This document shows, piece after piece, positions 1-37,980 of a DNA stretch of 64,000 bases; the first letter of the stretch is position 1, and each line of letters opens with the position of its first letter. The stretch covers positions 81,118 to 145,117 of the forward strand of contig JACKFN010000003.1 of NCBI GenBank assembly GCA_020632445.1, written 5' to 3'. The translations under genes were made by a program, and so were the position numbers. This DNA is from Candidatus Nomurabacteria bacterium. Its GTDB lineage: Bacteria; Patescibacteriota; Patescibacteriia; Magasanikbacterales; UBA922. The notes under the pieces are model-generated. The model was not told the DNA's origin. It did not search any database and saw only the letters and a program-made list of their open reading frames with translations.

Positions 1-98
1 GTGATCATCAAGGAAACTCGTCTTAATTGCTTCGATCATGAGGGCTCCTTCCTCGCTCATCGGTCCGTTACTGAATATAATATGAAAGTAATCTACTG

Positions 99-755
99 TC
101 AAGCAACTATGTTCTCCAATTTGGCCCCAGGTCTCGCTTGTTTCCAGAGGGGGCCAGAACCTATTTTGTCATGTTTCTTGCCATTTATGCGTAATGCTGT
201 TTTTTCTCCTATTGCAATCAGTGGCCATTTAGAATTCTCCTCTGTGTTTTCAAGGGAGGTTTTTGCCCTTGCCACTGTTTCATGCTGAGCATGTACAAGC
301 GTAGTCATGGGAAGCCAAGCCCAACCTGTTTGTAGCTCATTGGGCATACTAATACTACTAAAGTAGAATCGTGATAATGCCTGTGCTCCAGCACTCATAC
401 CAATGACATGAGTACCATTCTCATATGCATACCTCAATGTTTTTTCTAATTGCCATTTAGCAAACAAGTCCATCAGTTTATCTGCATCTCCTCCTCCAAG
501 ATAAATAACTGATGCCTGTTTAATAGCAGAGTGTGCATATTTTTTACCTGACTTTAGTGTTGGAGTTAATATGGTATATCTCTGTCCGTATACTTCCCTA
601 ATAGCCTGAATATAACTCTTACTATCACTTGCAGCAGTGGCAAAGAAAGTCATAGTTGCACCTAACTCAGCCAACTGCATAATTTCAGCATCTATCAATT
701 GCGTGTCTCCCAATCTTATTTCTCCCCCCCCTATTAGATATAATTTGCCTTTCAT
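99..755 (-). CDS. S51-family peptidase (dipeptidase E / cyanophycinase-like); ORF extends to 809 but the start is probably the internal Met at 755 (MKGKLYLIGGG)
   Basis: Translation contains YLIGGGE..., GMSAGA and LGGGDADKL motifs typical of peptidase E-like S51 enzymes. Confidence 0.55.
   Translation of the reverse strand: MKGKLYLIGGGEIRLGDTQLIDAEIMQLAELGATMTFFATAASDSKSYIQAIREVYGQRYTILTPTLKSGKKYAHSAIKQASVIYLGGGDADKLMDLFAKWQLEKTLRYAYENGTHVIGMSAGAQALSRFYFSSISMPNELQTGWAWLPMTTLVHAQHETVARAKTSLENTEENSKWPLIAIGEKTALRINGKKHDKIGSGPLWKQARPGAKLENIVA
724..731. repeat. C8/G8 homopolymer tract inside the S51 peptidase coding sequence (encodes the GGG of LIGGGE)
   Basis: Run 'cccccccc' read directly; unusual length in a ~40% GC genome. 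Confidence 0.6.
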
Positions 756-1267
756 ATATTTAGCTATTAGCCTAATCCACAATGTCAAGAGTTTATAAAA
801 ATACGACATATACGTATCAAGTTATAGGATATCAAAAAAGAGCCATGAAAGCGAGTTCAATAAATCTGAATTTAATTGTATGAATATCACAAAACTATTT
901 TGAGACACCTAATCTAAATAGTAGGTTCTGTATTCAATAGCTATAGTTACGCAAAAATTAATAGAAATGTCTCTGCTATAAAAATGGCATACAACCAAGA
1001 AAAAGCTCTTAGATGTAAAAAAAATTCATTCAAAGAAGGTCAGCTTGAGTAGATTTCAAAGTATGGATTAATTCAGAAAAATTTCTAAAATTAGATCTAT
1101 TTTCCCTTTTGCTCAGGTCACTACTTTCTCTGAAAAACAATGAAAACGGAAATTTTGGGCAGAAGATGGGCAGATTTCACTACATGACAGAAGGAATGCA
1201 AAAAAAACAAAGCCGAAAAATGTCTTTGTTTAGTAGGAAATAGTCTCCGTGCCAGGAAAATATTCTT

Positions 1268-1294
1268 GCAGGACATCGTAGAGGAAGTTGGAAC
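1268..1294 (+). repeat. Copy A of an imperfect 27-bp direct repeat GCAGGACATCGTAGAGGAAGTTGGAAC
   Basis: Matches copy B at 1912-1938 at 24-25 of 27 positions; both are preceded by ttct. Confidence 0.6.
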
Positions 1295-1323
1295 TGTTAT
1301 TAAAAAAAGGAAGTATTCGATTT

Positions 1324-1803
1324 TTACCTAACAAGTAGTTCAAGCGGAACCTCTACACGCATAGTTTTTGTTGCTTCAGTGACGTGCCTCTCACTAAGAT
1401 CGTTCAACCATACTTTTACAGGAGTCATCTTGTAGAGTTTCTTTATGCTAATCCCTACAAATTCGGAAGCATCGTCCTCGCTATTTAAAAATAGTGGCAT
1501 AGTTTTTGCAATATCATCGGTGTTATCCATTTCAGCTACTGTACCTTGTATATAGACACAGGACTGGTGGTTATCTCCTAATTTTCGTGTGGAATTATAT
1601 ATTGTCACAAATACATTCTCGTTATCTATTATATTTTTTGAATGTTGACTATAGATCCAAGATCTCCAGTAAAAGTTAAAGTGAGGATCTGATACAGCAT
1701 ATACAGGAGTATTCCAAGGTTCATTTGTATTGGATACAGAGGCAATGTTCATGTATATAATTTCGTTTGTAATGTCTAAAACTTTTTGAGCAAGTTCAGT
1801 CAT
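1324..1803 (-). CDS. Pyridoxamine 5'-phosphate oxidase-like (FMN-binding split-barrel) family protein, tentative
   Basis: 159 aa; sequence pattern resembles PNPOx-like/general stress protein 26 proteins; flanked by the two direct-repeat copies. Confidence 0.35.
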   Translation of the reverse strand: MTELAQKVLDITNEIIYMNIASVSNTNEPWNTPVYAVSDPHFNFYWRSWIYSQHSKNIIDNENVFVTIYNSTRKLGDNHQSCVYIQGTVAEMDNTDDIAKTMPLFLNSEDDASEFVGISIKKLYKMTPVKVWLNDLSERHVTEATKTMRVEVPLELLVR

Positions 1804-1875
1804 ACTTATCAGTTAAAATTTACATTTGTATGATACCAAATTTGAACGCTGAGTTCTAACTTCCATTCTCCCCAT

Positions 1876-1901
1876 TAAAAAACATCGCTAAGCTTAGCGA
1901 T
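1876..1901 (-). terminator. Intrinsic terminator of the DUF2779-like gene: perfect 18-bp palindrome ATCGCTAAGCTTAGCGAT followed on the minus strand by GTTTTTT
   Basis: Palindrome at 1884-1901 and A6 run at 1877-1882 read directly. Confidence 0.5.
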
Positions 1902-1911
1902 GAATTTCTGA

Positions 1912-1938
1912 GCAGGACATCGTAGACGAAGTCGGAAC
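1912..1938 (+). repeat. Copy B of the imperfect 27-bp direct repeat GCAGGACATCGTAGACGAAGTCGGAAC
   Basis: See copy A; lies between the DUF2779 stop codon and its terminator hairpin. Confidence 0.6.
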
Positions 1939-1979
1939 CAGAATGAAGAAAGAACAGGGATACGTTACCATCCCTTGCC

Positions 1980-3482
1980 TTACTTAATTTCCACTTTAAT
2001 ACCACATACCCCTAAAAGGTGCTCGTATATTTTTACCATCGCCCACGTGTCTTGTTTACAGTACTCCAGTAGATCATGGTAGATAGCGTCTTCATCCTCA
2101 CATTCCTCAGAAAGCATGTACTCCCATCGTTCCATAGCCTGATCACCTGCTCGAACAGACAAATCATCATAGGTTAGCTCTGGCACAAGCACAGGAAGCA
2201 CTTTCTTGATACTGGTTTTTCCTTTGAAATCTTGATGAACATATAGCTGTTTTGTAAAAATGGTTTCAAGATCAAACATCCGCTCGTTCATGTCTTCAAA
2301 AAACGGTGCGTATTCGGGGTATACTCGTGCGAGTGTTTTATTTCTTCCTTCTTCGTATGATTTGTGCCAAGAGATGATTGATCCTTTTGAACCAATATCG
2401 TCAGTAAGTTGTTCTACAAGAGAGCGTGCAATATCTGACTTTCTCTTTCTTACGAGATGATCCCTGTGTTCAATTGTCCCGTCTTCGTGCAAGATGTGAA
2501 GCGAGTACTGAAAGGGCACTTGCTCGAAAGAGCTATAACCCGTGAATTCTGGAATGGCTGTACCGTATCCTTCATAGTCAAAGAAATACAGAGGAAAGGT
2601 AAGCGTGTCGAGCTCTTCTTTTATCGTGTGCGTATCGATCAACGGTTTCTGTGATCTATACACTTCCACTTGGAGAGCTTGCTTGTCATTAAGAATAGAA
2701 ACATCGGGGATATCTTCAAGAGTAAAGATACCTTCATCCACCCAGTTTTCTATTTTCTTCTTACTGAGTCCAATTCTATGCAAATCGTGAATACTATATT
2801 CGGGAACTTGTGGATTTGAATATGCAAAGGTCGTACACTGATTTGATCTACCACGATAGATGCACTCACAACCACTACCCTCTGGCATATCCATAGAACG
2901 TTTCATATCTTCCATCTCAGCCGTTACTTCTTCCACCACTTCTGCTACCTCCTCTGTAACTTCTTCCACCATAAAGACATCTCGCCAAGAAAACGAAGAA
3001 TGTCGTTTGTACTCTCCATTCAAATGGATAATCCCACATTTTCCAATAGGAATACCAGCTTGCTCACAAACTTGCTTCTGAAAGGAAATATCTTTGATAT
3101 GGTTATGGTTCTTTTTTCGTTTTACTTCGTTTGTTGCCTTCACCTCGTATAGCTCCCATGCACTGAGGGCATCATTCCATACTAAAATATCGGCTCTGAT
3201 CAAAAAAGAATCTACTGAAATTGCAGCCTGAAAGATCACTTTTTCTTTTCGATCAATGTACTGTTTTGTATCCTCAATAGCTTCTGCTTCATGTGTCGTT
3301 ACGAGAACACCTTCTGGAAACAAGTGACGTGCTGCTTCATCAGCTATGTTACCTTCCTCAATGATCTTCTTTTCAAATTCAGATAGCTCGACACCCTCAA
3401 AAAGCTCTGGCTTATGTTTTTTAAGCCAAAGGTTTTTCTTGCAGAACAAAAATTCAAGATAGTCGGTTTTGGTTAGTTGCAT
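1980..3482 (-). CDS. DUF2779-like protein (predicted nuclease-related fold); ORF track starts at TTG 3488, ATG at 3482 preferred
   Basis: 500 aa; N-terminal YLEFLFCKKNLWL and central FPLYFFDYEGY segments recalled as DUF2779 hallmarks. Confidence 0.5.
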   Translation of the reverse strand: MQLTKTDYLEFLFCKKNLWLKKHKPELFEGVELSEFEKKIIEEGNIADEAARHLFPEGVLVTTHEAEAIEDTKQYIDRKEKVIFQAAISVDSFLIRADILVWNDALSAWELYEVKATNEVKRKKNHNHIKDISFQKQVCEQAGIPIGKCGIIHLNGEYKRHSSFSWRDVFMVEEVTEEVAEVVEEVTAEMEDMKRSMDMPEGSGCECIYRGRSNQCTTFAYSNPQVPEYSIHDLHRIGLSKKKIENWVDEGIFTLEDIPDVSILNDKQALQVEVYRSQKPLIDTHTIKEELDTLTFPLYFFDYEGYGTAIPEFTGYSSFEQVPFQYSLHILHEDGTIEHRDHLVRKRKSDIARSLVEQLTDDIGSKGSIISWHKSYEEGRNKTLARVYPEYAPFFEDMNERMFDLETIFTKQLYVHQDFKGKTSIKKVLPVLVPELTYDDLSVRAGDQAMERWEYMLSEECEDEDAIYHDLLEYCKQDTWAMVKIYEHLLGVCGIKVEIK

Positions 3483-3522
3483 ATTCAAGTAATGTTCAAT
3501 CCTCTATGGAGCTCACTATTTT

Positions 3523-4440
3523 TTAAACCATTTTTTCAATACTCTCTTTCAGCTCATCCGCCTCTGGATACCACGTCAACGTATCCAGATCATGACGAAG
3601 AGCATAAAGGTCTAATCGTCTATTGAGGTTATTAAACGCAAACAATTCTGGGGCATACTCTCTAAACCAATCTATCAGATGAGCGTAATCTTCATCTTTT
3701 ACAAACTGCTCAGCATATTCAGACATATACTTGCTTGGTAATTCTTGCATTCGCTTCACAATATCAAGAACGTAGTCAATCGAAGACACTTCAATACGCT
3801 CGAAGTCTAACATTGCGACTATCTTTCCATCTTCAACCAAGACATTATCGAAATGGGTGTCCCAATGAACAAATGCCATTTTTGCTTCATCCAAGACGCT
3901 CTGATGTTTTTCCACAAAGTCTCTAACACCTAATATAACCTCATCTACGAGAGTGTTTTCTTGTTTTAATTTTTCTAGTGAAACGTTGATTTTATCTACG
4001 ACAATCTCACGCCAAGATTTAGAAATATCTACGTCAAACTTTTCAACAAAATCATTGTATGGAGTTTCGTTTATCGCTCTGAGATGGTTACACAGTTCTT
4101 TCACAATCTGCTTCCTCTCATGTTCATCCATTTTATGCCATACGTTATACAGGTTTTCACCTTTGATCCTCGGATATACAACGTAATGCTTATCGAAGAT
4201 ACTTTTTGACGTGTCGTAAATGATAACTTCTGGTACAGGAATAGATGGTGAGAACAGTTTATACAAATAGACTTCACGAGCCATTCTATATTCGTTTCCC
4301 TCATCATCACACACTTTAAGAATGTACTTATCATCTACCGAGTACACTTTGTTTGTAAAACCGACCTCTATTTTCTTTACAGAATTAGGCTCTACAAGAT
4401 CGTTTATTTCGAATATCTTTTTTACTTTTTCTATATCCAT
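3523..4440 (-). CDS. Aminoglycoside/choline-kinase-type phosphotransferase (APH family)
   Basis: 305 aa; HWDTHFDNVLV (catalytic H-x-D-x4-N) and downstream DFE motif. Confidence 0.6.
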   Translation of the reverse strand: MDIEKVKKIFEINDLVEPNSVKKIEVGFTNKVYSVDDKYILKVCDDEGNEYRMAREVYLYKLFSPSIPVPEVIIYDTSKSIFDKHYVVYPRIKGENLYNVWHKMDEHERKQIVKELCNHLRAINETPYNDFVEKFDVDISKSWREIVVDKINVSLEKLKQENTLVDEVILGVRDFVEKHQSVLDEAKMAFVHWDTHFDNVLVEDGKIVAMLDFERIEVSSIDYVLDIVKRMQELPSKYMSEYAEQFVKDEDYAHLIDWFREYAPELFAFNNLNRRLDLYALRHDLDTLTWYPEADELKESIEKMV

Positions 4441-4444
4441 ATTT

Positions 4445-4762
4445 TTATCTAACCCAGTTTGTAACTAGATAACTCGTAGCAGTTGCAACAATTAACGGCA
4501 CAAGGATATCCCACAAAATTTTTCTTTTCCAGTCATTTCTTTTATCTATCAAAAATTGTCTTTGTAAAAGTAATTGAGCTTTTTCCGTATCGAGATACTT
4601 TATTTCACCCTCCTCCATAATCCTATCTATATAATCTCCAGCAAAGGTTTCTTGTAAATTATGTATCCTTCTTGGTTTTTCTTCTTCTATTTCCAAAAGT
4701 CTAAGCTCAACTTTTTTAAGACTTTTTGGAATATCAGGTTTGTACTCTTCTTTTTTTGACAT
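4445..4762 (-). CDS. Hypothetical small protein with C-terminal transmembrane anchor; ATG at 4762 preferred over TTG 4768
   Basis: ORF with hydrophobic C-terminus WDILVPLIVATATSYLV; upstream sequence is identical to that of the DUF2779 gene. Confidence 0.35.
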   Translation of the reverse strand: MSKKEEYKPDIPKSLKKVELRLLEIEEEKPRRIHNLQETFAGDYIDRIMEEGEIKYLDTEKAQLLLQRQFLIDKRNDWKRKILWDILVPLIVATATSYLVTNWVR

Positions 4763-4909
4763 ATTCAAGTAATGTTCATTCCCCAGTACTACTCACTATT
4801 GTTTTCTTCTGGAAAATACTTATTGTTCAATTTAGTGAGCAGAACAAAGAAGTCTGTGATATTTTTCAATTCTTCCTCAGTGAAATGTTGGGGCTGTTCA
4901 ATATCCATG

Positions 4910-7198
4910 CTAGAAGCTCAATCTCTCCCAACCCTTTGCAGTCTTTTCATGCTTATAGTCTTTTCCTGTAAACACGTGTCCGCCAGTCTTATCAAAGACA
5001 ACAATACCACCGAACAATTTCTTTTTCTTGTTGTCTGCAATATAGGCTTGAAGAGCGTCGGATTTAGCCTTTGTTTCGCCACTAGAGGCGGTAAAACCAG
5101 ACTTTGTATCAAAGATGCCTATTGATCCATCTTTCATCTGTACGACGTAATCTGGATAAAATGCATGCTCCAGTTCATCGTCTGGATGGACGTAGGCAAC
5201 GGCAAAGTACATTTCTTTACTCTCACCATTTTTGTACCACCAAGACACCTTGTCACTTTCTGATAGAACCTTTTCAAATTCTTGTTCTGGATTTGATCTT
5301 GTCTTGGATAGATAGCACGGACTCATTACGTTATTTGCCACACTGACCTTTTCATAATTTTCGTTGTAGTAATCAACATTTGGGACATCCCATGTGCACT
5401 CTCGTCTTCGCTGTTTTGCTTTGAGCTCTTTTTTGCGTACCTCTCGGAAGCGTTCTTTTGCAGCCTCAATGATCTCCAAGAAAATCTTTTGATTAACATC
5501 TGAGCACACAACAACACGCTGAATTTCTGCACGACTTTTGTCCGCATAGCCGAGGTAGCTATCAAACCAATCGTAAAATGCTTGTTGTACTTTGGTATGA
5601 GAACGAACAGGGGCAAATGGCAGTGATGCTACTTTCGCAAACAGCTCAAACTTGTATTTCAAATCATCCATCGGTACAGAGAAGTCTACCAATTCACCCA
5701 CGACATCTCGAGCACCATCGACATTATCAATAACCGCATTTGAGATCACAGGCTTGGTAAGCTCCTCGAGGTATAACTCAAGGTCTTTGTCTGCTTTTTT
5801 GTAGGCTGTGTCACCGATATCTTTTGACGTAATGCCAAATCGCTTGTTAGCTTCTTCGATAAAGAGCTTACGGAAGGTAAGAGTAAGATCACCATAATCA
5901 ACACGGCTGAGGTAGACGGACGGTAGTTTAATTGGCTCGTAATTAGCCTCTCTATGAGATGGAGAAACATTGAAAAATGTCTGACTTCCTTCGTCCTGCT
6001 TGATCTTGATCTCTCCAAGATTTGTATAGACGTATGCACTGTTCAGTACATCTGACTCGTAGTGCTTTACTTCTGGCATACGGAGTATTCGACCGACTGT
6101 TTGAATTTCAAACGTCACGCTTTTGATATCTCGGAACATCACAAGAATTTGAGCACGAGGACAATCCCAACCAAGAGCAATTGCTTGCTTGAAGATGAGC
6201 ACTTCTACATGATTATCTACTCGCTCAATACCTTGCAGGTTTTCTTTTGTGTCTGAAAGCCAAATGGCAAGTCGTCCATTGTCTACGGTAATGTCATGTT
6301 TCTTCTTCAAATACTCCTGCACCATTTCGAGCTTTGACTTATCAAGAGCACTGGTCTTTTGTGCTTCACTCGGTAGCTGGATCAGTACAAGCGGATTTAC
6401 ATCGCTCTTTTCTTTTTTATAGGCTTCTTTCAGTTCGTCACGTTGTTTGATACTGGCATCTAGGATAGCCTCATCAGCCGAGTCACAAAGGTCTTTGTAC
6501 TCTCCAATCTCTTTATTGATAATTGTCTCAGACTTAATCATTCCTTCTGCTACTACGTCACCAAATGGAACAACGATAAACCCAGCATCACCAGTCGCCA
6601 TATCTTCTGCTGTAGGCAAGATAGATGGTGTAGCAGATACCTCAATGGTGAGCTTTGGAGCAATAACATCTTTCACCAATTCTTGTGACTGGTCTGACCA
6701 GTAGTGGTGGTGGCTCTCGTCTACAATGAGGATAATTTCTCGTCCCTTTTCTTTTGTATTTCGTACAAATGTAGGCAAGTTTCTATCTTGCTCGTTATCT
6801 CGCATGAGCACGTTTGACCATGCACCTTCACGGTTTTTCTTGGTGAGGCTATGCCAATTTACAAACACAATTTCGTTCTCTTCAAATGTAGAGCGTTGTA
6901 CTTCTTCAAGATACGAAAATGTATATCGACTTTCAGAAAGATAGCTCTCGAGCTTTTCTTTACTTTGTGAATGCAAATCATGTGAGCTAATCCAAATGAA
7001 GGCGAATTCTTTGCTTCCTACATATTCTCGAGAGAATTGCTGGAGAAAGTCTGCCATCATAATGGTCTTTCCTGATCCAGTCGGGGCTTTGAATACACAA
7101 ATCTTTTCTCCCTGTTTATCAAGGAGTTTTTTGGCTTGAAAGAGTAGCTTATCTACTGCTGTTTTTTGATATGTTTTTAATCTCATCATATTAGGCAA
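4910..7198 (-). CDS. res: Type III restriction enzyme Res subunit (SF2 helicase plus C-terminal PD-(D/E)xK-like nuclease)
   Basis: Walker A APTGSGKT, DEAH-like VDESHH, C-terminal PDYVVQMKDG; 8-bp overlap with the upstream mod gene. Confidence 0.75.
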   Translation of the reverse strand: MPNMMRLKTYQKTAVDKLLFQAKKLLDKQGEKICVFKAPTGSGKTIMMADFLQQFSREYVGSKEFAFIWISSHDLHSQSKEKLESYLSESRYTFSYLEEVQRSTFEENEIVFVNWHSLTKKNREGAWSNVLMRDNEQDRNLPTFVRNTKEKGREIILIVDESHHHYWSDQSQELVKDVIAPKLTIEVSATPSILPTAEDMATGDAGFIVVPFGDVVAEGMIKSETIINKEIGEYKDLCDSADEAILDASIKQRDELKEAYKKEKSDVNPLVLIQLPSEAQKTSALDKSKLEMVQEYLKKKHDITVDNGRLAIWLSDTKENLQGIERVDNHVEVLIFKQAIALGWDCPRAQILVMFRDIKSVTFEIQTVGRILRMPEVKHYESDVLNSAYVYTNLGEIKIKQDEGSQTFFNVSPSHREANYEPIKLPSVYLSRVDYGDLTLTFRKLFIEEANKRFGITSKDIGDTAYKKADKDLELYLEELTKPVISNAVIDNVDGARDVVGELVDFSVPMDDLKYKFELFAKVASLPFAPVRSHTKVQQAFYDWFDSYLGYADKSRAEIQRVVVCSDVNQKIFLEIIEAAKERFREVRKKELKAKQRRRECTWDVPNVDYYNENYEKVSVANNVMSPCYLSKTRSNPEQEFEKVLSESDKVSWWYKNGESKEMYFAVAYVHPDDELEHAFYPDYVVQMKDGSIGIFDTKSGFTASSGETKAKSDALQAYIADNKKKKLFGGIVVFDKTGGHVFTGKDYKHEKTAKGWERLSF

Positions 7199-8987
7199 AG
7201 AGTTTACGATAGACTTCTAAAATACTCTCTGGGATAGGACAAAGTGTATGATCTACCGAGAGATCAGCAAAGTCATCCTCGAACGTGTCGTGAGAGAGTG
7301 AAAAAATGTACAAGTGTGCAGGCATGTCTTTTGCATCCACCTTTTCTTTGAATTCCTTTACCGAATCAAGATCGAACAATATACCCGTAAGGTGATCATT
7401 GTTTTTATAGACTTTGTACTTTTTGTTGTCGTAGATTTTCTTGTACGTCCCTTCCTTTACACAGATCATCTCTGTAGACTTCTTCACGAGTTCTCTACGG
7501 GTATCGTCTGATACTTCCGATTGCTTTACGAATGTTGTTTTGAAATAACGTAGATTTGCAGGAATACCTTCTACATCTGCATAGCCTTCAATGACGTTTT
7601 CTACACGAGGGTATGTTACTTCCTCAGCAATACCGTTTTCGTTATTGGTACAAAGTATAAACTGACGATTGCCTCCATCTTGCTTGTTTAGTTCTAGAAC
7701 AGCGTGAGCAGTCGTTCCAGAACCTGCAAAAAAGTCTAGTATAGTAACTTTTTTATTTTTCTGTGCTTTCGAAACTTTCAACGTATCAATCACGGCGTAT
7801 AAAGACTTTGGATAATCAAAAACTTTCTCTCCACCAAACAAATTTTTTAGCATGTTCGTTCCATGAGAGGAAGCATCGTACAAAGAATCGACCCATATTG
7901 TTTTTGGTTTCCTTCCTGATTTTGTCCTATCTTTCAAATAGACTGAATATGATCCTTTTACTTTTTTCACTACAAATTCTCCCTCCGCAGCATTTCTTAA
8001 AATCTTCTCTCTATCTGACCATCTCCAGACCCTTCTTTTACCATTTGAGTCAATAGGCATGATCATGTTTATGTTCGGGTAAGACTTCCTAAAATCTTCA
8101 ATGGAACATTCTTCGATTGAGCCTTTTTTACCATACACAAACACTGTGTCCGTTTTGTATTGATCTTTGTAGCTTCCTATCCTCGATCCACCAACCCCTA
8201 CAATCTTTTTGTGCTTCGGTTCAAAAGCAATAAAAAATTCTGAATTAGGACGATCTTTTGGAACAGATAGTCCGCCACTTCGTCTAAATGGGAGTAGCCT
8301 ATAGTTCGAAGTTTCATCTTCAAGTCCAAAATTCTTTTTCTGTTCATCTGTAAGAGGTAAATCAAAAACCTTTGATTTACTACTTCTTCCGTACATCAGA
8401 ATATACTCATGAGATGTGGCAAAATTTTTGTTTGTAGTTCTACCACGTGGGTTAATTTCAATTGCCACTATACCCATTCTATTTTCTTCACCAAAAATTT
8501 CATCTAGCAATAGCCCAATTTGAAAAATTTCATAATCATCAATGGTAAGAAAAAGGACACCGTCTTCTTTAAGAAGATTTTTTGATGCCTCAATTCTTTT
8601 TGCCATCATGGATAGCCACTTCGAATGCCTATACGGATCATCACTGTCTACATAGTCGTTGTTGTATCTCCAAGAATTGTTACCAGTATTATACGGAGGA
8701 TCAATATAAATAACATCTACCTTTCCAGCGTGCGTGTAATTCAAAACAGACAACGCATGATAGTTGTCTCCCTCAATCAATAGATTGGTGACTCCATTTT
8801 CATCCTTTTCAAGGGTACGTTCAGCTACTTCTTCGAGTACAGGTAGATGTTCTTTGCATTTTTCTACTACATCCTCGGGCTTATCTTCCCAGACCAGCCC
8901 ATATTTTTTTCTGCTTTGTAATTGTTCAACGAGCTCGAGAAGCTCTTCTTTGTTCATGTTTTTGTAATTCTTCATAGTAATGTTCAT
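7191..8987 (-). CDS. mod: Type III R-M Mod subunit (beta-class N6-adenine DNA methyltransferase)
   Basis: DPPY motif IV (IYIDPPYNTGN) precedes the AdoMet motif I FFAGSGTTAHAV; mod then res order is typical of Type III systems. Confidence 0.8.
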   Translation of the reverse strand: MNITMKNYKNMNKEELLELVEQLQSRKKYGLVWEDKPEDVVEKCKEHLPVLEEVAERTLEKDENGVTNLLIEGDNYHALSVLNYTHAGKVDVIYIDPPYNTGNNSWRYNNDYVDSDDPYRHSKWLSMMAKRIEASKNLLKEDGVLFLTIDDYEIFQIGLLLDEIFGEENRMGIVAIEINPRGRTTNKNFATSHEYILMYGRSSKSKVFDLPLTDEQKKNFGLEDETSNYRLLPFRRSGGLSVPKDRPNSEFFIAFEPKHKKIVGVGGSRIGSYKDQYKTDTVFVYGKKGSIEECSIEDFRKSYPNINMIMPIDSNGKRRVWRWSDREKILRNAAEGEFVVKKVKGSYSVYLKDRTKSGRKPKTIWVDSLYDASSHGTNMLKNLFGGEKVFDYPKSLYAVIDTLKVSKAQKNKKVTILDFFAGSGTTAHAVLELNKQDGGNRQFILCTNNENGIAEEVTYPRVENVIEGYADVEGIPANLRYFKTTFVKQSEVSDDTRRELVKKSTEMICVKEGTYKKIYDNKKYKVYKNNDHLTGILFDLDSVKEFKEKVDAKDMPAHLYIFSLSHDTFEDDFADLSVDHTLCPIPESILEVYRKLFA

Positions 8988-8995
8988 TGTTTCGG

Positions 8996-9181
8996 TTACG
9001 ACTGATCTTCAATGAAAGCAAGAATGTCTTCTTTCTTGTATCTTCGATCTCCTCGAGAGCCAAACCGTATGGCTTTGAGTTTTCCCTCGTTATCCCACTT
9101 TCGTAGTGTATTGGGATGACAGTTCAATATCTCACATGCCTCCTTTAGCGTGAGCAATTGAGGCATTTTTTGCATGTCCAT
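8996..9181 (-). CDS. Excisionase/AlpA-type helix-turn-helix DNA-binding protein
   Basis: 61 aa; LTLKEACEILNCHPNTLRKWDNEGKL matches the excisionase-family HTH pattern. Confidence 0.55.
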   Translation of the reverse strand: MDMQKMPQLLTLKEACEILNCHPNTLRKWDNEGKLKAIRFGSRGDRRYKKEDILAFIEDQS

Positions 9182-9262
9182 AGCTCTTGATTTTGTACTT
9201 AATATAAGTTACCATTAGTATACACGAAATTACTATTACTCTCAAATTAGCATGACAATTAT

Positions 9263-10411
9263 ATGGACAGAATGCCAAACTTTTTGCGGAAGCTGTCGCC
9301 AGCAATGCTGAACGCCTACTGCAAACATAAAAATATAGACTTTACTGTCTCTCCCAAAGAGAAGGATACGGAAAAGATCAAACAGAGCTTCATAGAATGT
9401 TGGGAAAAGCTGGAATATACGGAACGCAATGAGGTTGAAATAGACTTTGGTGCGACCGAGGAGCTCATGTCTAACACAGGATGTGGGCTGCTCCATGATC
9501 TTGCCGTACAAAAGAAAAAAACAATCCCAAAAGAATGGGATAACATGACTACGGCTGACAAGGCTTTGTGGTTTTACCTAAACGATCCTGAAACATTTCG
9601 AGAAGGAGCACTAAGATATGTAGTAGAAAACGCACAAGGTTGGATGACATTCCGAGCTGATGCAGAGTTACCTACAGCAGATTTGGATGCCCGTGTTGGA
9701 AAACTGCAACAACAAATGCAGAAGTATCTCTATGCAAAAGAGAGACGAGGGGCACTTTGTAAAATAGACATGATACAGAAAGACAACTATGTCTGTTTTG
9801 TTGCAAATCCTCAGAATTACCCAAAACGAGAGCCCGAATATGATGAGAAAACAAAGGAGCTCAACAAGGCAACCAGCATAAAACCAATCTATCAACTTTA
9901 CTTCCTATATCGATCGGACGACCAAACATTGAGCATTAAATCTCGATATAGAAAAAACAAGAAGCAAGATTTGGCAAATATGTTTGGTAATCATGTGCTC
10001 AACGTACCCCTTCTGGGAGATAAAATCATCTCGTACAATCTTGATCTGTTGTTAGACCCAGAATTCGAAATGAAAAAGCCACTTGGTCTCGAAAAAGTAG
10101 TACTCAAAAGAGTGCGTCTCAAATCTCGCAGGAACTTCAAACATTCTATCCAGTTAGACCTTGGTACATTAGACGATGGTATAGAACCTCTACGAGAACA
10201 ATTACGTTTGTATAACATAAACCCAACATTCTTTGAGGTGGCTACAGCTACCATGACGTTTTACTTCCAACGACCGAAAGACCCCCGATACAAAAATCAG
10301 AGGTTCGACGTAACTGTTGAGCTGTCAAAACCTCACAGATGTACCTTCAAAAATCGTGATCTGGATGATAAAGCAAGAACAGTATTACATGATTGGGGTA
10401 TTGTGAATTGA
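9263..10411 (+). CDS. Hypothetical protein of unknown function (382 aa), first gene of a two-gene cassette
   Basis: Long ORF with no recognisable motifs; a 2-bp gap to the next gene suggests translational coupling. Confidence 0.5.
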   Translation: MDRMPNFLRKLSPAMLNAYCKHKNIDFTVSPKEKDTEKIKQSFIECWEKLEYTERNEVEIDFGATEELMSNTGCGLLHDLAVQKKKTIPKEWDNMTTADKALWFYLNDPETFREGALRYVVENAQGWMTFRADAELPTADLDARVGKLQQQMQKYLYAKERRGALCKIDMIQKDNYVCFVANPQNYPKREPEYDEKTKELNKATSIKPIYQLYFLYRSDDQTLSIKSRYRKNKKQDLANMFGNHVLNVPLLGDKIISYNLDLLLDPEFEMKKPLGLEKVVLKRVRLKSRRNFKHSIQLDLGTLDDGIEPLREQLRLYNINPTFFEVATATMTFYFQRPKDPRYKNQRFDVTVELSKPHRCTFKNRDLDDKARTVLHDWGIVN

Positions 10412-10412
10412 T

Positions 10413-11351
10413 ATGGTTTTTTCATCCGCAATATCTCTCTTGCACCACAATGAACGTATCCCTCGAGAAGAAATTGAAAAGTATATAAGCAAGGGCATAA
10501 TTGCACATTTGCGAAAGCAGGGTGTATTAAAAGAGAGCGACACACTGTCACACATAACTTGCCAAGAGTGCAACGAATGTCTGTGTGAGGTGGAATCTTT
10601 TGATGGTGGCGTTCGAGCATATTGTGAAACATATAACAGTTTTTACGATCTACCAGAGTCATATTCGCAACCCTCATACAAATTCGACACAAACGGCTTC
10701 CTATCTCTTCTCAAAGAACAATTCGATATCAAAGGTTCGACTGAAAAAATAAGCACCAATTTTTTTAACATCGGTTATCTCAGTACAGATCATACACACA
10801 TATTTTTTTCCTTTGATGATGACCAAAACAACCACTCGCAAGATATAGACCGAATCCTTGGATCAAACGGGAAAGCACTTATTGTTGTACCATTTTCTGC
10901 TTCGCAGTATACGTATACGGGAAACCGTGTTCGACCAGTAAGCTTGGACAGTGTTGGAAAATTTACTTCTCGTGCAATATCTTGGGATAAGGAAGAGTTT
11001 GAGTACATTGTAGAAAGTACCTTTCGTAGTGTTGAGTTTACTCTGCATGGAGAGCTCAAACACAACGGGGTAATTTTACGAGACTATGCCTCGGGGACGA
11101 ACCAATATGCTTTCCTCAAGACATTGTTTGATAGCTTCGGTAGAACGGTTACAAATGAAACGCTTTTTGATAATGCAAAAAAGACAGTACCAAACTTTAG
11201 ATATACCAGTCCGTCATCTTTCGCAGAGAAAACAAAGTCTAACATCTGCAATAAAGACAAGGAAACCAAAGATATTGTGGAAAAGATCATTGTTCCTGCG
11301 AGTGCAGCGGGATCAAAAAAAGGCTACAGAATGACAAATCCTCAAGCATAA
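10413..11351 (+). CDS. Hypothetical protein (312 aa) with an N-terminal Cys cluster (CQECNECLC...C), second gene of the cassette
   Basis: ORF; only a putative zinc-ribbon-like Cys cluster is recognisable. Confidence 0.5.
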   Translation: MVFSSAISLLHHNERIPREEIEKYISKGIIAHLRKQGVLKESDTLSHITCQECNECLCEVESFDGGVRAYCETYNSFYDLPESYSQPSYKFDTNGFLSLLKEQFDIKGSTEKISTNFFNIGYLSTDHTHIFFSFDDDQNNHSQDIDRILGSNGKALIVVPFSASQYTYTGNRVRPVSLDSVGKFTSRAISWDKEEFEYIVESTFRSVEFTLHGELKHNGVILRDYASGTNQYAFLKTLFDSFGRTVTNETLFDNAKKTVPNFRYTSPSSFAEKTKSNICNKDKETKDIVEKIIVPASAAGSKKGYRMTNPQA

Positions 11352-11352
11352 T

Positions 11353-11392
11353 GTCAGCAATCCGTCAGCGATTGTCAGCAAAATGTCCGCAA
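11353..11392 (+). promoter_or_regulatory. Iteron-like array: four direct repeats GTC(A/C)GC(A/G)A starting at 11353, 11364, 11374 and 11385 (10-11 bp phasing)
   Basis: Read directly in the sequence; begins 2 bp after the stop of the upstream gene. Confidence 0.55.
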
Positions 11393-11411
11393 CAACCTAC
11401 CTTAGAATAGA

Positions 11412-11435
11412 ATCACGGTAACCCGTGATTTTTCG
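11412..11435 (+). terminator. Hairpin ATCACGG-TAAC-CCGTGAT followed by TTTTCG; terminator-like or operator inverted repeat
   Basis: Perfect 7-bp inverted repeat plus T-run; the motif aaCCGTGAT recurs at 11455-11463. Confidence 0.4.
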
Positions 11436-11488
11436 TTGCAACGTCAAACAAAGGAAACCGTGATGTTTATCAATTAACATTACGACTT

Positions 11489-11764
11489 ATGACTAAAGAA
11501 CATTCCTACGTTCCCTTTCTTGAGGACTACCCAAATCCATTTTCAAGCTACGACATTGGCATGTGTGCGGGCTTGGTAAGCGTTGGCTACCAGCTTCTAC
11601 ACATAGACAAGTCAAAGGGAGCAAAAGCACTTTTCCTCTTTGAAAACAGCGATGAGATTGTTGAATCCGCTCAACAATACTGGCGAGGAGAATTGCAGGT
11701 CGATGCACTTGCGTACTTCAACGCACTCAAGAATATCAAGAACCAGTTGTACTCACAGCGATAG
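11489..11764 (+). CDS. Hypothetical small protein (91 aa)
   Basis: ORF only; lies within the element between the iteron array and the primase. Confidence 0.3.
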   Translation: MTKEHSYVPFLEDYPNPFSSYDIGMCAGLVSVGYQLLHIDKSKGAKALFLFENSDEIVESAQQYWRGELQVDALAYFNALKNIKNQLYSQR

Positions 11765-11933
11765 ATATGCTCTCTGACGAAATGGTCGAGAAATTTCGAG
11801 AGCTGTATCGCAAACGCTATGGCGAAGACATCTCAAAAGAAGATGCACTCATGCAAGGTACAGCTCTCCTGCGGATGATGAAAGTGATCTATCGACCACT
11901 CCCAAAAGGAGAAAAAAAACATACTCAATAAAC

Positions 11934-12170
11934 ATGAACATTATGAAATCTATTGAAAGACGGTTTAACCGAATCTCAAAAAAATACACTGGCTGGAGCT
12001 CATATCTCTGCTTTGTAGAAGCGATAACAGGACAATACTTTCGTCGTCGGACGATCCAGTATTGGTTCAATAAGCTGGTAGACAAAGACGACTACAGCAA
12101 AGGTGACAAACAACAAATCATTAACTTCCTCGAGCATCTATCAAATGAGCGTGAGGAAAGCACGAAATAA
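11934..12170 (+). CDS. Hypothetical small protein (78 aa); starts ATGAACATTATG
   Basis: ORF; carries the recurrent start-site motif. Confidence 0.3.
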   Translation: MNIMKSIERRFNRISKKYTGWSSYLCFVEAITGQYFRRRTIQYWFNKLVDKDDYSKGDKQQIINFLEHLSNEREESTK

Positions 12171-12248
12171 GGCGTAAATTGCCCTCTGCGTGCTTTTCTT
12201 GAGCCCAGAGGGCATAGATGCCATGACGATTAACATTAACCAAATACT

Positions 12249-14438
12249 ATGGAATTTCAGACAATTACCATTAGCCAATATCTCAAAGAAAAAGGGATGG
12301 AATTTGTGGAGCGAAATGGTGAGATAGTAACACGATGCGTATTCAATGACTGCGACGCTGATAGCAGAGCAAACGAGGCTCACCTATATTTTGATGCAGA
12401 GACAGGACAGTACGATTGCAAAAAATGTGGTGAACAAGGAAACATAATTACACTCGCAAGACATCTTGGTGACACACTTGAAGATGTAGCAAAAGAAAAA
12501 ACACAGCCCAGTAAAAAACGGAAGAAAAACGGTATAACCATTACGGACGTTGAAAGATGTCACAAAGCTCTTCCAGATCGAATACGAGAGTACCTGCACG
12601 ATCGAGGAATTACAGACGAGCTTATCTCGCACTTCAAACTAGGCTGGGGTGAATTTTATGGTTCACAATGGATCACCATACCTATCAAAGATATTGATGG
12701 GAATTTTTCGTTCTTCAAATTACGGCGTGACCCTGACCAAGAAACCGAAGACGGAAAATATCGGTTCTACCCTGCTGGAAGTAAAGCAACGCTCTTTGGC
12801 TGGGATATGCTCAAAGGTAACACGGACATGATCGTGATCTGTGAGGGAGAATTCGATGCAATACTTCTCACCAGCCTTGGTATCCCCACACTAACATCTA
12901 CCGCAGGGGCAGGAACATTCAAAGACGAGTGGATACCGCATTTGAAAAACTTGAAAAACATTCACATTTGCTTTGACAAAGATGACGCTGGAGCGAAAGG
13001 AGTAGAAAAGCTGGTAGCACAGCTCGATACGCATTTGAGTAAGACCGCAATACACCAGATAACATTGCCAGATCGAATGACTGACGGAAAGGACGTTACT
13101 GATTACATAACCAAGCACAACGGAAACCCAGATGAACTACTGAAAGAATGCTCAAAACAAGTTGCAGGAAGACAGCCCATTGATACGTCTAAATTCAAAC
13201 CACTCACCTCAGATGATGTTGTTCGAGTGCTCGGGCTGACAATCAAGAAAGATGAAGAGAACAAGCTCATCACGTTTCTTTGTGCATTGTCTGCATATAC
13301 TGAGCAATCCCAATTCAATCTGAGCTTCAATGCTCCGTCTTCCACGGGAAAAAGTTTTATCCCTATGGAAGTATCGACACTCTTTCCTACAGAAGACGTA
13401 ATGAAGCTCGGTGACTGCTCACCAAAGGCGTTTTTTCACGAACAAGGAGAATACGACAAAGAGAGCAACACGATGCTTGTTGATCTATCGAGAAAGATAC
13501 TTATATTCCTTGATCAGCCACACAATAGCTTGCTCGAACGTCTTCGTTCACTCTTATCTCACGATCAGAAAGAGATGATCTCAAAGATTACAGACAAGAA
13601 CAGAAAAGGTGGAAACCAGACAAAGACAGTTATCCTTCGTGGGTATCCTGCTGTTATCTTTTGTAGTGCTGGATTGAAGATAGACGAACAAGAAAGTACT
13701 CGGTTTATTCTTCTCTCCCCACAAACGAGCCAAGAGAAACTGCGGTTTTCAATCCAAGAAAAGATCAAGAAGGAGTCTGACTACGAAACGTATCGAGATG
13801 ATCTCAATGCTAATCCAGAACGAGCACTACTCAAAGAGCGAATTGAGGCAATCAAAGATGAGGCGATTGATGAAATACGCATTGAAAACCCAGAATTGAT
13901 AGAACAAGAATTTTTCTCTAAACGTGCAAAGCTGAAGCCTCGTCACCAACGTGACATTGGTCGGCTGATGGGGCTTACAAAGATATTTGCTCTCCTGAAT
14001 GTCTGGTTTCGAGAACGTGAAGGCTCAACAATCGTGGCAACAAAAGAAGACTTTGAAGAAGCACTCAAGCTCTGGAACAAGATATCCGAAAGCCAAGAAT
14101 ACAATCTTCCTCCATACGTGTATGAGCTATACAAGGATGTTATTGTCCCAGCATACGATGAAAAAAATGCGTTTGGGCTTGCTGCTGATCCTTCAGGAAT
14201 TACAAGAAAAGAGATACTGCAAAAGCACTATGAGGTATATGGACGTATGGTACAGGACTGGCAAATGAGACAGCAGATCATACCGATGCTAGAAACGGCA
14301 GGTCTCATATCACAAGACCCTGATCCTGATGACAAACGGCGTATTCTTATTACCCCTACAGACAAACTCACTACTTCCACAGACTCTGAAAAAGATATAG
14401 TGAGCGACACTGGGGACGTAGGTACAATTTCCCTGTAA
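12249..14438 (+). CDS. Phage/plasmid-type DNA primase: CHC2 zinc finger plus TOPRIM plus C-terminal P-loop domain
   Basis: CVFNDCDADSR...CKKCG zinc finger; TOPRIM MIVICEGEFDAILL; Walker-A-like APSSTGKSF. Confidence 0.75.
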   Translation: MEFQTITISQYLKEKGMEFVERNGEIVTRCVFNDCDADSRANEAHLYFDAETGQYDCKKCGEQGNIITLARHLGDTLEDVAKEKTQPSKKRKKNGITITDVERCHKALPDRIREYLHDRGITDELISHFKLGWGEFYGSQWITIPIKDIDGNFSFFKLRRDPDQETEDGKYRFYPAGSKATLFGWDMLKGNTDMIVICEGEFDAILLTSLGIPTLTSTAGAGTFKDEWIPHLKNLKNIHICFDKDDAGAKGVEKLVAQLDTHLSKTAIHQITLPDRMTDGKDVTDYITKHNGNPDELLKECSKQVAGRQPIDTSKFKPLTSDDVVRVLGLTIKKDEENKLITFLCALSAYTEQSQFNLSFNAPSSTGKSFIPMEVSTLFPTEDVMKLGDCSPKAFFHEQGEYDKESNTMLVDLSRKILIFLDQPHNSLLERLRSLLSHDQKEMISKITDKNRKGGNQTKTVILRGYPAVIFCSAGLKIDEQESTRFILLSPQTSQEKLRFSIQEKIKKESDYETYRDDLNANPERALLKERIEAIKDEAIDEIRIENPELIEQEFFSKRAKLKPRHQRDIGRLMGLTKIFALLNVWFREREGSTIVATKEDFEEALKLWNKISESQEYNLPPYVYELYKDVIVPAYDEKNAFGLAADPSGITRKEILQKHYEVYGRMVQDWQMRQQIIPMLETAGLISQDPDPDDKRRILITPTDKLTTSTDSEKDIVSDTGDVGTISL

Positions 14439-14541
14439 AAACAAGTAATTAACTGGACAAGGTTCTGTAAATACTCCCTAGGGAAAGGAGCTTATTCTCT
14501 AATGATTTCGGTAAATTCAGAACCTGATAAAACCTTACATT

Positions 14542-15171: not shown

Positions 15172-15313
15172 TATAATTACATCGCTTACCCAATGTACAA
15201 TTTTTGTCAAAAGATTTTTTATTTGTTGCCAGTAAGGGGCAGTCCTCCAACAAATATGTCTTTTGGCATGTGCGTTGGGTAAGCAGGGCTGTCCCTTTTT
15301 GTAACCAAAAAAT

Positions 15314-16918: not shown

Positions 16919-16977
16919 GAATCGAACCCACGCAATTGGTTTTGGAGACCAATGTACTACCACTATACGACTCGCCC
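16905..16977 (-). tRNA. tRNA-Trp (anticodon CCA), 73 nt with encoded CCA
   Basis: The reverse complement folds as a cloverleaf: acceptor stem GGGCGAG/CTCGCCT, anticodon loop CTCCAAA, T-loop GGTTCGATTCC. Confidence 0.75.
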
Positions 16978-17064
16978 ATAGACTTGGACATTGTACTAAA
17001 ATTTGCACCAACTTTCAACCCCATACACCAAAAGCAGCTTTCGCTGCTTTATGGTCATCACACA

Positions 17065-34500: not shown

Positions 34501-34584
34501 AAAAAATTTACCTTATTATAGCAAGTTTTCTATAAAACGAAAAGTCTTGAAATAAAAAAAACCACTGTTTGTGGAGTTGTGGCG

Positions 34585-34611: not shown

Positions 34612-34648
34612 GCCGTTGGTGGGGTAGCTCGCCGTGACGAGTGGCGGA

Positions 34649-37669
<3,021 letters not shown>

Positions 37670-37972: not shown

Positions 37973-37980
37973 GTCCTAAA

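Follow-up and report, generated by a model that had tools for sequence, protein, structure and literature searches.

In a Candidatus Nomurabacteria genome, an integrative element carries a two-gene cargo module enclosed by a 45-nt direct repeat (3480-3524 / 4760-4804), which, to judge from its sequence, is probably a portable gene-start signal and recombination point. The element lies in the window, the 64,000-nucleotide stretch of DNA analysed here, and ends near position 16979. Each copy of the repeat, called a cassette below, is a fusion of two cis elements of one element family, a boundary motif of the form (A)ATAGTGAG-N6-TGGGG and a leader of the form T[GTA]AACATTAC-N2-7-ATG. Directly observed are the anatomy of the repeat, its statistics, its conservation, and where the module is present or absent.

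The repeat and its host element

The repeat is situated in the cargo arm of the element, which contains:

1883 to 1902 and 1956 to 1975: terminator-like hairpins near the DUF2779 gene
1980 to 3482, minus strand: DUF2779 gene, the last gene of the arm (Pfam DUF2779, 5.6e-38)
3480 to 3524, minus strand: copy A of the junction cassette, made up of boundary motif AATAGTGAGCTCCATAGAGGA (3500-3520) followed by the 19-mer (3480-3498)
3523 to 4762, minus strand: two-gene cargo module enclosed by the repeat
3523 to 4440, minus strand: APH-family kinase-like protein (Pfam APH, 2.8e-19)
4445 to 4762, minus strand: 105-aa protein with a C-terminal hydrophobic helix, the small TM protein of the sequence-only reading
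4760 to 4804, minus strand: copy B of the junction cassette, made up of boundary motif AATAGTGAGTAGTACTGGGGA (4780-4800) followed by the 19-mer TGAACATTACTTGAATATG (4760-4778)
4789 to 4908, minus strand: 39-aa small ORF (MDIEQ...ENNSE, stop), whose last codons, AAT AGT GAG TAG, are boundary motif
4910 to 9181, minus strand: upstream genes (Pfam: HTH_17 8996-9181, Type III mod 7191-8987, res 4910-7198)
9245 to 9217, minus strand: predicted promoter TTGAGA-17-TATACT, at the HTH_17 end of the arm

The two copies are 80% identical, are spaced 1,280 bp apart and form the top-ranked repeat within positions 1-17000. The 19-mer is the ATG-proximal end of both. It is exact at 3480-3498 and 4760-4778 on the minus strand, just as the sequence-only reading had placed it at the DUF2779 and small TM protein starts, and shuffles expect 0. 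All nine mismatches between copies A and B fall in the upstream 26 nt and none in the 19-mer (P = 0.0035). Its last bases are the ATG of the 105-aa gene in copy B and that of the DUF2779 gene in copy A; some 50 homologues have the N-terminus M-x-I-T-K-T-D-Y-L, which sets the latter start at position 3482. Read from the sequence, the 19-mer is made of two direct repeats of TGAAYAT, 11 bp apart, and a search for TGAAYAT-N4-TGAAYAT found no sites besides the 19-mer copies. L001, a separate assembly from Logan, matches window positions 1463-6604 exactly and contains both copies, showing that the repeat is not peculiar to one assembly. With one genome taken per GTDB species, the 19-mer has only three matches, which is chance level, about four being expected by our own arithmetic from the stated size of that collection.

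One arm of the element carries HTH_17, Type III mod/res and cargo, the cargo-arm genes lying within a long predicted operon. The other carries DUF5659, the primase-helicase and the serine recombinase:

12249 to 16979, plus strand: other arm, with primase-helicase (12249-14438), a 209-aa gene and the large serine recombinase (15314-16918)
16904 to 16977, minus strand: tRNA-Trp, at the end of this arm

An Rfam covariance-model search of the window found this tRNA-Trp alone and no match for the repeat. An iteron-like array of 4.5 x 11 bp is situated at 11345-11392. The genes from 1980 to 14500 had been tied into one unit, which is roughly right but not in its limits: homology with L161 and L076 reaches 16979, spanning the recombinase and tRNA-Trp, and 1980-4762 is variable cargo, not backbone. 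Cargo content varies in L076, L161 and L078.

In the closest relative, L046 (DUF2779 76% identical, HTH 85%), the junction is without the two-gene module. Its order is a small ORF ending ...NSE-stop, AATAGTGAGTAGCAGTGGAGAATAAAAATTACT and the ATG of DUF2779, with ATAAAAATTACT directly 5' of that ATG; AAAAATTACT stands in place of GAACATTACT, and TGAAT is absent. Compared by eye with this junction, the upstream half agrees at 17/21 positions in copy B and at 12/21 in copy A. The 39-aa small ORF is homologous to the small ORF that precedes DUF2779 in L046, and the ...NSE-stop ending is also found in L078 and L077. Other Patescibacteria also have homologues of the 105-aa protein, adjoined by varied partner genes, and at L067 two copies of the boundary motif likewise flank a two-gene module that includes such a homologue.

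The boundary motif and the leader in related elements

The boundary motif has three copies in the window against 0.10 expected. The 22 listed instances, at nine loci, are all co-oriented with the local genes. In related elements the motif marks the primase 3' end as well as cargo junctions, in all three reading frames. The third copy in the window has an inverted partner:

14395 to 14416, plus strand: copy C of the boundary motif, ATATAGTGAGCGACACTGGGGA, which lies within the primase ORF at its 3' end and is read D-I-V-S-D-T-G-D
14353 to 14373, minus strand: TAGTGAGTTTGTCTGTAGGGG, a partner of copy C in inverted, back-to-back orientation, 24 nt away

At the position of copy C the motif is also present in L076, L078, L161 and L162, and with one mismatch in L077. 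The C-termini of 119 primase homologues, drawn from a family with at least 2,173 relatives in public data, read ..DIVS..G.. in 27, ..NSE.. in 57 and ..KI-stop in 3. Judged by these tails, the boundary motif is conserved as nucleotides, whatever the reading frame. The elements of some primase relatives are 13.3-kb circles; the phage, plasmid and IMG/VR collections hold no relatives beyond the Toprim domain.

The motif is composed of two similar half-sites about 11 nt apart, AGTGAG and AGTGGGG, and the DNA after it is A/T-rich. Its tandem copies in L162 are 43 nt apart and are followed by TGATATAAT. A TATAAT-like hexamer (at least 5/6) comes after the motif in 9/22 instances versus 11.8% in controls (p = 5e-4), and the hexamer position in relatives is often occupied by TATAAT or TAAAAT. 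The distance from TAGTGAG to the -10-like hexamer is 12-25 nt and differs between instances, showing that the boundary motif is not a -35 box. No consensus pairs of an RNA structure were found in 19 instances, and copies A and B fold no better than shuffled sequence. The instances at L067 and L070 lie outside any recognisable element, with no primase nearby. The block CTCACTATT, which had been noted as shared upstream of the 19-mer, is indeed present at 3512-3520 and 4792-4800; it was given too little weight, being a more widely conserved signal.

The leader and its relatives were followed at these sites:

8970 to 8987, minus strand: mod start, ATGAACATTACTATGAAG, the third copy of an 11-mer, including ATGAACATTACTATG
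9227 to 9240, plus strand: ATTACT repeated in tandem, AAATTACTATTACT, in the control region between the divergent HTH_17 and 382-aa genes
11474 to 11491, plus strand: leader of the DUF5659 gene, TTAACATTACGACTTATG, of the same sequence family as the 19-mer and kept in L161, L076 and L078
11934 to 11945, plus strand: ATGAACATTATG before the 75-aa gene, whose conserved start is the second ATG
12230 to 12251, plus strand: TTAACATTA before the primase, 17 nt upstream of its ATG

In four related elements the DUF5659 gene, which belongs to the backbone, starts with the same leader directly 3' of an intrinsic terminator. In the window this terminator is at about 11411-11434 (-12.3 kcal/mol, z -3.3), and a palindrome at 11434-11443 is also upstream of the leader. 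The DUF5659 leader of L078 matches the 19-mer at 16/19 positions.

AACATTA occurs eight times in the window, which is the total expected by chance. Six of the eight fall at 3.4-12.3 kb, all of them in the orientation of the gene and between -17 and +3 of a start. It is found at 6/15 element starts versus 0/44 host starts (Fisher p = 1e-4; 4e-4 with the duplicate counted once). In the -40..+3 regions of four related elements it is the most enriched 7-mer (9/52 against 0.23 expected), a count that includes orthologous sites not independent of one another. Such counts overstate independence because the sampled relatives are few and of shared ancestry. AACATTA sites are fewer in the relatives than in the window.

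The motif versions reported at the mod, 11934, 11489, 12249 and 14542 starts (ATGAACATTACTATG, ATGAACATTATG, TTAACATTA, TTAACATTA and ACATTATG, respectively) were all found there. The 11-mer TGAACATTACT has three matches against 0.09 expected, the third being at the mod start (8976-8986, minus strand). The orthologous mod of L161 has the same 17 nt at its start, with variable flanks; by this comparison TGAACATTACT at mod, which L161 has unchanged, is part of the N-terminal sequence that this mod lineage has inherited. At the primase start TTAACATTA is not kept in L076 or L079, which have AAAATGA there, and the first ATG of the 75-aa gene is absent in L076 and L077. The motif cannot serve as a -10 box at mod or at the 75-aa gene, being inside the ORF or too near to it. 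The ATTACT tandem overlaps the predicted HTH_17 promoter, and a similar array is found in L079, L161 and L162; ATTACT has no overall enrichment.

Expression signal, recombination point and alternatives

The host genes are without Shine-Dalgarno sequences and have TGnTATAAT boxes 7-24 nt 5' of the ATG. In the cassette a -10-like hexamer, [TG]AACAT, is situated 8-9 nt 5' of the ATG. It agrees with TATAAT at 3-4/6 positions (best, GAACAT, 3/6) and has neither a -35 box nor a TG extension; a sigma-70 scan flagged nothing at copy A or copy B. There is no Shine-Dalgarno box 5-10 nt before the start, GGGGA/GAGGA being 17 nt from the ATG. The leaders fold into less structure than shuffled sequence. 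A T7-type single-subunit RNA polymerase promoter, with core ...CTCACTATAG and +1 G, was considered and rejected. In reverse complement, the motif has CTCACTAT(A) in common with this core, yet in that reading it is antisense and followed by T-rich DNA, and no element-encoded T7-type RNA polymerase was found.

What we infer is that the cassette is active as a promoter or in initiation, that a factor takes part, and by which route recombination proceeded. There is about an even chance that the 45-nt cassette is a portable promoter/initiation signal, duplicated when the module entered by a crossover in the 19-mer. It would act as a portable expression signal with the weak -10-like [TG]AACAT close to the ATG, giving nearly leaderless transcripts in a host that uses no Shine-Dalgarno sequences, and the boundary motif would probably be the site for a putative DNA-binding factor. 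An incoming module with its own cassette would meet the resident cassette, and a single crossover of the mini-circle or Campbell type within the 19-mer would leave the 19 bases identical and the upstream halves diverged. A 19-base match is short for recombination by RecA, and no recombinase dedicated to cassette sites was found. Two proposals of the sequence-only reading fit the evidence and are not mutually exclusive: a promoter/operator, as the cis elements are shared across the element family, and an intra-element duplication, as the duplicated junction surrounds the inserted module.

The repeat might instead be a neutral scar, 45 nt copied once at module insertion or by tandem duplication and functionless, as the module-free L046 junction and a 19-mer private to the lineage (three matches versus about four by chance) would allow. 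This is improbable in view of the recurrence of both repeat halves at non-orthologous sites and in other genomes, the upkeep of the boundary motif regardless of frame, and mismatches that spare the 19-mer. Equally doubtful is its corollary that the remaining AACATTA sites reflect common descent and N-terminal codons rich in A/T (MNI...): mod has inherited its 11-mer as coding sequence and the window is richer in these sites than its relatives, but AACATTA is the top upstream 7-mer and absent from host starts. An operator at gene starts, bound by an element-encoded DNA-binding repressor (e.g. HTH_17) or a T4 RegA-type RNA-binding repressor, is unlikely to a similar degree. It partly overlaps the preferred promoter reading because a promoter can carry an operator. 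The motif is element-specific and, where it stands at starts, always on the sense strand, the 19-mer is made of two TGAAYAT repeats, and several elements have tandem ATTACT overlapping the HTH promoter; on the other side, TGAAYAT-N4-TGAAYAT does not recur, ATTACT is not enriched overall, and no RegA-like or other RNA-binding protein was recognised among the element proteins.

Slightly less probable again is a replication signal for the primase-helicase (iteron/ori or second cis site, as in P4 and PICI), the 19-mer being incidental. The presence of the motif at the primase gene 3' end in most of the 119 homologues, its half-sites with A/T-rich DNA after them, and the L162 tandem suit such a signal. 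It accords poorly with the copies at cargo junctions and at the primase-less loci L067 and L070, and with the co-orientation of every copy with transcription; the 11-bp array at 11345-11392 is a better ori or partition candidate. Least credible is the mini-ORF (A/T)TG-AAC-ATT-ACT-TGA as a translational-coupling device, translated with reinitiation at the overlapping TTGA or the downstream ATG, and the reinitiation across 29-40 nt gaps within the operon that would go with it is just as hard to credit. The mini-ORF, encoding MNIT, is certainly present in both copies, its TGA overlapping an in-frame TTG two codons 5' of the ATG, in a host without SD-led initiation and in genes of a long predicted operon. 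Its start and stop are, however, not conserved: ATAAAAATTACT of L046 has neither codon, and the DUF5659 leaders (TTAACATTAC...) have no ATG/TTG. Moreover, copy A requires a TTG start, the distance of GGGGA/GAGGA from the mini-ORF start is 1-2 nt, and in mod and the 75-aa gene the mini-ORF bases are part of the gene's own frame, with no separate ORF.

A bolder extension of the portable-signal reading, which we consider a long shot, is that a very large Patescibacteria family of integrative/plasmid-like elements has a cassette-exchange system which works at boundary motif and leader. Cargo modules of defence genes, small membrane proteins and kinases would be released as mini-circles and reinsert at ATAGTGAG..TGGGG/AACATTAC junctions with promoter and start codon already attached. 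The outcome would, with the same low probability, be integron-like, the site unrelated and the enzyme putative.

This element family of ultra-small Patescibacteria is little studied, and the mobile elements of Patescibacteria (CPR) are barely described; plasmids are rarely studied in them, according to a recent survey (PMC12023590). If the preferred reading is true, the 8-mer ATAGTGAG with its G-run helps to delimit cargo modules in these elements, and the cassette is a first candidate for the expression and exchange of defence cargo in hosts without Shine-Dalgarno initiation. It would also be a concrete case of a DNA signal dictating the C-terminal tails of a protein family in three frames, which matters for the annotation of primase genes.

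Comparison with known systems

The cassette resembles integron attC sites in that small or promoter-less modules are bounded by a recurring short site at which a circular intermediate could reinsert. Unlike attC, it has no imperfect palindrome or hairpin, and its site is on the 5' side, fused to the start codon. There is no adjacent IntI-type integrase; the sole recombinase found by Pfam in the window element is the large serine recombinase, 10 kb from the cassette, in place of which the L077 element has a tyrosine integrase.

P4 ori/crr and PICI pri-rep-ori combine a primase-helicase gene with a repeated short motif. Here too a repeated short motif is found at the primase-helicase 3' end and at a second distant site, but it also stands at many cargo junctions and outside elements, always along transcription, and the window element has a separate 11-bp iteron array. 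T4 RegA operators are recurring A/U-rich motifs at or over the start codons of several genes in one mobile genome. An A/U-rich motif likewise recurs at several gene starts of the element; unlike the RegA case, no RegA-like protein was detected and the leader motif also follows a terminator, where a promoter is needed.

Leaderless or near-leaderless mRNA promoters, common in Actinobacteria, Deinococcus and archaea, have a -10 box about 7 nt before the ATG. The position of the cassette hexamer, the lack of an SD sequence and the host TGnTATAAT boxes close to ATGs are similar, whereas [TG]AACAT is a poor match and the cassette start is predicted from sequence.

According to two reports, the PeSL of T4-type phages are short conserved expression cassettes bordering non-essential genes in variable regions, and their copies recombine so that genes are inserted, deleted or swapped and gene-plus-cassette mini-circles can be released (Arbiol et al. 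2010, PMC2839356; Comeau et al. 2014, PMC4122927). A PeSL is a strong sigma-70 promoter plus a stem-loop terminator in a phage, whereas the 45-nt cassette, in a Patescibacteria integrative element, has a weak -10-like box, no stem-loop and an upstream half embedded in coding sequence in three frames. The likeness is that the cassette flanks a 105-aa/APH module missing in L046 and that its mismatch pattern is consistent with a single crossover inside the cassette.

The 45-nt repeat at element gene starts

Within the first 17 kb of the window, no repeat is stronger than a 45-nt direct repeat whose two copies, A and B, are 80% identical and spaced 1,280 bp apart. They lie in one of the two arms of an integrative element, with the following layout.

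Features of the element (coordinates, strand, description)
8996-9181, minus: HTH_17/excisionase-like gene, one arm
7191-8987, minus: Type III mod gene, same arm
4910-7198, minus: Type III res gene, same arm
After res, minus, same arm, in this order: 39-aa ORF, 105-aa membrane protein gene, APH-like kinase gene, DUF2779 gene
4760-4804, minus: repeat copy B, before the 105-aa gene
3480-3524, minus: repeat copy A, before the DUF2779 gene
Other arm, plus: 382-aa gene, 312-aa gene, DUF5659 gene, two small genes, Toprim primase-helicase gene, 209-aa gene, large serine recombinase gene
14395-14416, plus: copy C of the boundary motif (the upstream half of the repeat), inside the 3' end of the primase gene

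The 19-mer TGAACATTACTTGAATATG, which the sequence-only reading claimed to be identical at two gene starts, is indeed exact at 3480-3498 and 4760-4778 (minus strand), where no such match would be expected by chance, and forms the ATG-proximal end of each copy. All nine mismatches between A and B fall within the upstream 26 nt, the downstream 19 nt being identical, and the CTCACTATT common to both copies is positioned beyond the mismatches. Both copies are present in an independent Logan assembly (L001) that is identical to window positions 1463-6604.

A further copy of the 11-mer TGAACATTACT stands at the start of mod and brings its matches in the window to three, versus 0.09 expected. The 7-mer AACATTA occurs eight times in the window, which equals the chance total; six of these occurrences lie at 3.4-12.3 kb, all on the coding strand and within -17 to +3 of a gene start. 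The earlier association of the motif with element genes, as opposed to host genes, holds: AACATTA is found at 6 of 15 element starts and at 0 of 44 host starts (p = 1e-4). A search of one genome per GTDB species with the 19-mer gave three matches in unrelated phyla, about four being expected by chance according to our arithmetic, so the 19-mer is not widespread. ATTACT was rejected as the core motif, being unenriched overall (31 observed, about 31 expected), as was a direct-repeat operator TGAAYAT-N4-TGAAYAT, for which no further sites were found. The sole Rfam match was the tRNA-Trp. The finding is statistically supported, and a function for the 45-nt cassette is plausible but unproven.

The boundary motif

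The window has three matches to the pattern TAGTGAG-N6-9-GRRGR, where 0.10 would be expected. Among 22 instances from the window and eight other loci, ATAGTGAG is invariant, TAG usually comes next and a G-run follows 6-8 nt later. Every one of the 22 is co-oriented with the local genes and situated on or close to the preceding gene's stop codon. The reading of the motif varies by site, being N-S-E-stop, I/K-stop, D-I-V-S or intergenic. The C-terminal tails of 119 primase homologues include 27 with ..DIVS..G.., 57 with ..NSE.. and 3 with ..KI-stop, and many of the remaining tails are variants or end precisely at the expected position of the motif's TAG. Conservation in three frames places the constraint on the nucleic acid and not on the protein.

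No additional significant copy came out of 75 loci with an HMM built on the first five instances, but its weak matches pointed the way to copy C and the second copy in locus L067. A Doudnabacteria relative (L162) has at least six copies, at 253, 1528, 1571, 1800, 5292 (minus) and 12148 (plus). Two of these form a tandem pair spaced by 43 nt, and TGATATAAT follows several. A second window copy at 14353-14373 (minus) stands back to back with copy C, 24 nt away, forming an inverted pair in coding sequence.

In 9 of the 22 instances the G-run is followed by a good -10-like hexamer, versus 11.8% in controls (p = 5e-4). TAGTGA was rejected as a -35 box: its 16-nt spacing to AACATT fits in the window, but the spacing is only 12-14 nt in relatives. 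A T7-like promoter was also rejected, as the orientation is wrong and there is no polymerase. No conserved RNA structure was found in the boundary motif or the cassette. The motif could be a replication site or the binding site of a regulator. The former role is made less necessary by a separate iteron-like array at 11345-11392, which could itself be an origin or a partition site. In this array an 11-bp unit (GTCAGCRA type) is directly repeated 4.5 times just after the 312-aa gene; the array is also present in the related element L161.

The leader half and expression

AACATTA ranks first among enriched 7-mers in the -40 to +3 stretches of 52 genes drawn from four elements (9 versus 0.23 expected), and 9 of 10 occurrences of AACATTA[CT] are on the sense strand at gene starts. 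A leader of this kind precedes the DUF5659 gene, which belongs to the backbone, in each element listed below.

Leaders of the DUF5659 gene in the window and in related elements
Window: TTAACATTACGACTTATG
L161: TTAACATTACGAATATG
L076: TAACATTACTCATTTATG
L078: TAAACATTACACGAATATG, identical to the 19-mer in 16 of 19 positions

An intrinsic terminator hairpin (-12.3 kcal/mol, z = -3.3) and a palindrome, which together occupy 11411-11443, stand about 40 nt upstream of this leader. The signals that restart expression must therefore be in that short stretch, where the leader is the sole conserved block near the ATG. In relatives the 10-bp palindrome, CGTTGCAACG, has changed on both sides (CGTGGCCACG, CGTGCGCACG) and yet remains symmetrical.

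The hexamer [TG]AACAT, whose last base is 8-9 nt ahead of the ATG, retains A2 and T6 of a -10 box. Used as a -10-like box, it would yield transcripts with a leader of 0-3 nt, matching the style of the host, whose genes in the window lack Shine-Dalgarno (SD) boxes and whose promoters, where recognisable, have a TGnTATAAT box 7-24 nt upstream of the ATG. The match to a -10 box is weak, and a sigma-70 scan found no site at either repeat copy. Both copies of the cassette are less structured than shuffled sequence, and its reading as an SD box was rejected because of the wrong spacing. The motif cannot be a -10 box at mod or at the 75-aa gene, since at the former it is inherited N-terminal sequence (ATGAACATTACTATG, identical in L161 and different in L076) and at the latter it abuts a conserved second ATG. 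The MNIT-stop mini-ORF, proposed in the sequence-only reading as a possible device, is absent from the related locus L046 and from the DUF5659 leaders, and is thus unlikely to be the selected feature.

The only gene in the window with a strong SD box (GGGGGAGGAAACCC-ATG) is ORF 34649-37624 (minus, 991 aa), which encodes MopE metal-binding repeats and an FGE-sulfatase domain. The GC content at 34001-38000 is 60-65%, versus about 41% for the genome, and this region looks either like DNA acquired recently from an organism of high GC or like a chimeric join.

The element family and gain of the two-gene module

At least 2,173 proteins are homologous to the primase at E <= 1e-20. Relatives with primases 58-81% identical keep the backbone and differ in cargo.

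Cargo of related elements
L076 and L161: Type III RM
L077: Type II RM; has a tyrosine integrase
L078-L080: Type I RM
L162: other genes

L078, L079 and L080, contigs from sibling samples, are circular permutations of one gene order, two of them (L078 and L079) each of 13,338 bp, which suggests that a free circular form of the element exists. Searches of IMG/VR with the primase, both singly and in profile form, and of phage and plasmid collections yielded nothing nearer than Toprim-domain relatives.

The 3' end of the serine recombinase ORF (15314-16977 region) overlaps the 3' end of tRNA-Trp, on the opposite strand, by 15 nt. As the homology to L161 and L076 extends to 16979, through the tRNA, this segment seems to travel with the element. 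No att-like repeats longer than 10 nt were found between the two element ends. Upstream of the HTH gene, a sigma-70-like promoter is predicted; downstream of the DUF2779 gene lie terminator-like hairpins. A 40-nt direct repeat, 80% identical, is located after the PNPOx-like gene (1268-1307) and after DUF2779 (1912-1951), the second copy being within the stretch common to the window and L046; it could be the element's left border or a common 3' UTR.

L046, from a Magasanikbacteria genome, has in common with the window the HTH gene (85% amino acid identity), a small ORF, and DUF2779 (76%) with about 90 nt downstream, and has a different, MmeI-like RM module. Its small ORF, ending in ...NSE-stop, is followed contiguously by AATAGTGAGTAGCAGTGGAGAATAAAAATTACT and the ATG of DUF2779. 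This single junction implies that the ancestral junction had one cassette, whereas the window has two, enclosing the 105-aa/APH pair. The upstream half of copy B agrees with L046 at 17 of 21 positions and that of copy A at 12 (by eye). A and B share an identical 19 nt, and copy B is nearer to L046 upstream, as would be expected from insertion by one crossover: a circular module, comprising a variant of the motif, the 19-mer, the 105-aa gene and the APH gene, would have recombined once with the resident 19-mer, creating the second cassette. In L067, two boundary-motif copies enclose a two-gene module that includes a homologue of the 105-aa protein, and in L070 one copy is ahead of another homologue.

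Such homologues occur beside kinase-like or other partners (L060:7380-8348, Zeta toxin; L063:75-1205; window 3523-4762, APH), with RM, reverse transcriptase and NYN genes frequently close by. The 105-aa protein and its partner may constitute a two-gene toxin or defence module. L046:7400-7745 translates as a restriction-enzyme-like C-terminus (...KQWCEDANDRQKKIEYQMLYVKQETWEKY...) with no gene left intact, and after it comes a small ORF divided between two frames. Both are remnants of a past exchange of RM modules.

Among described systems, the closest is the PeSL of T4-type phages, promoter-terminator cassettes that border non-essential genes, recombine and release mini-circles (PMC2839356). 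Unlike PeSLs, the window cassette is without a stem-loop, shows no strong consensus promoter in the sigma-70 scan, resides in an integrative element of Patescibacteria, and is partly embedded in coding sequence, in any frame. What the two appear to have in common is their genomic behaviour.
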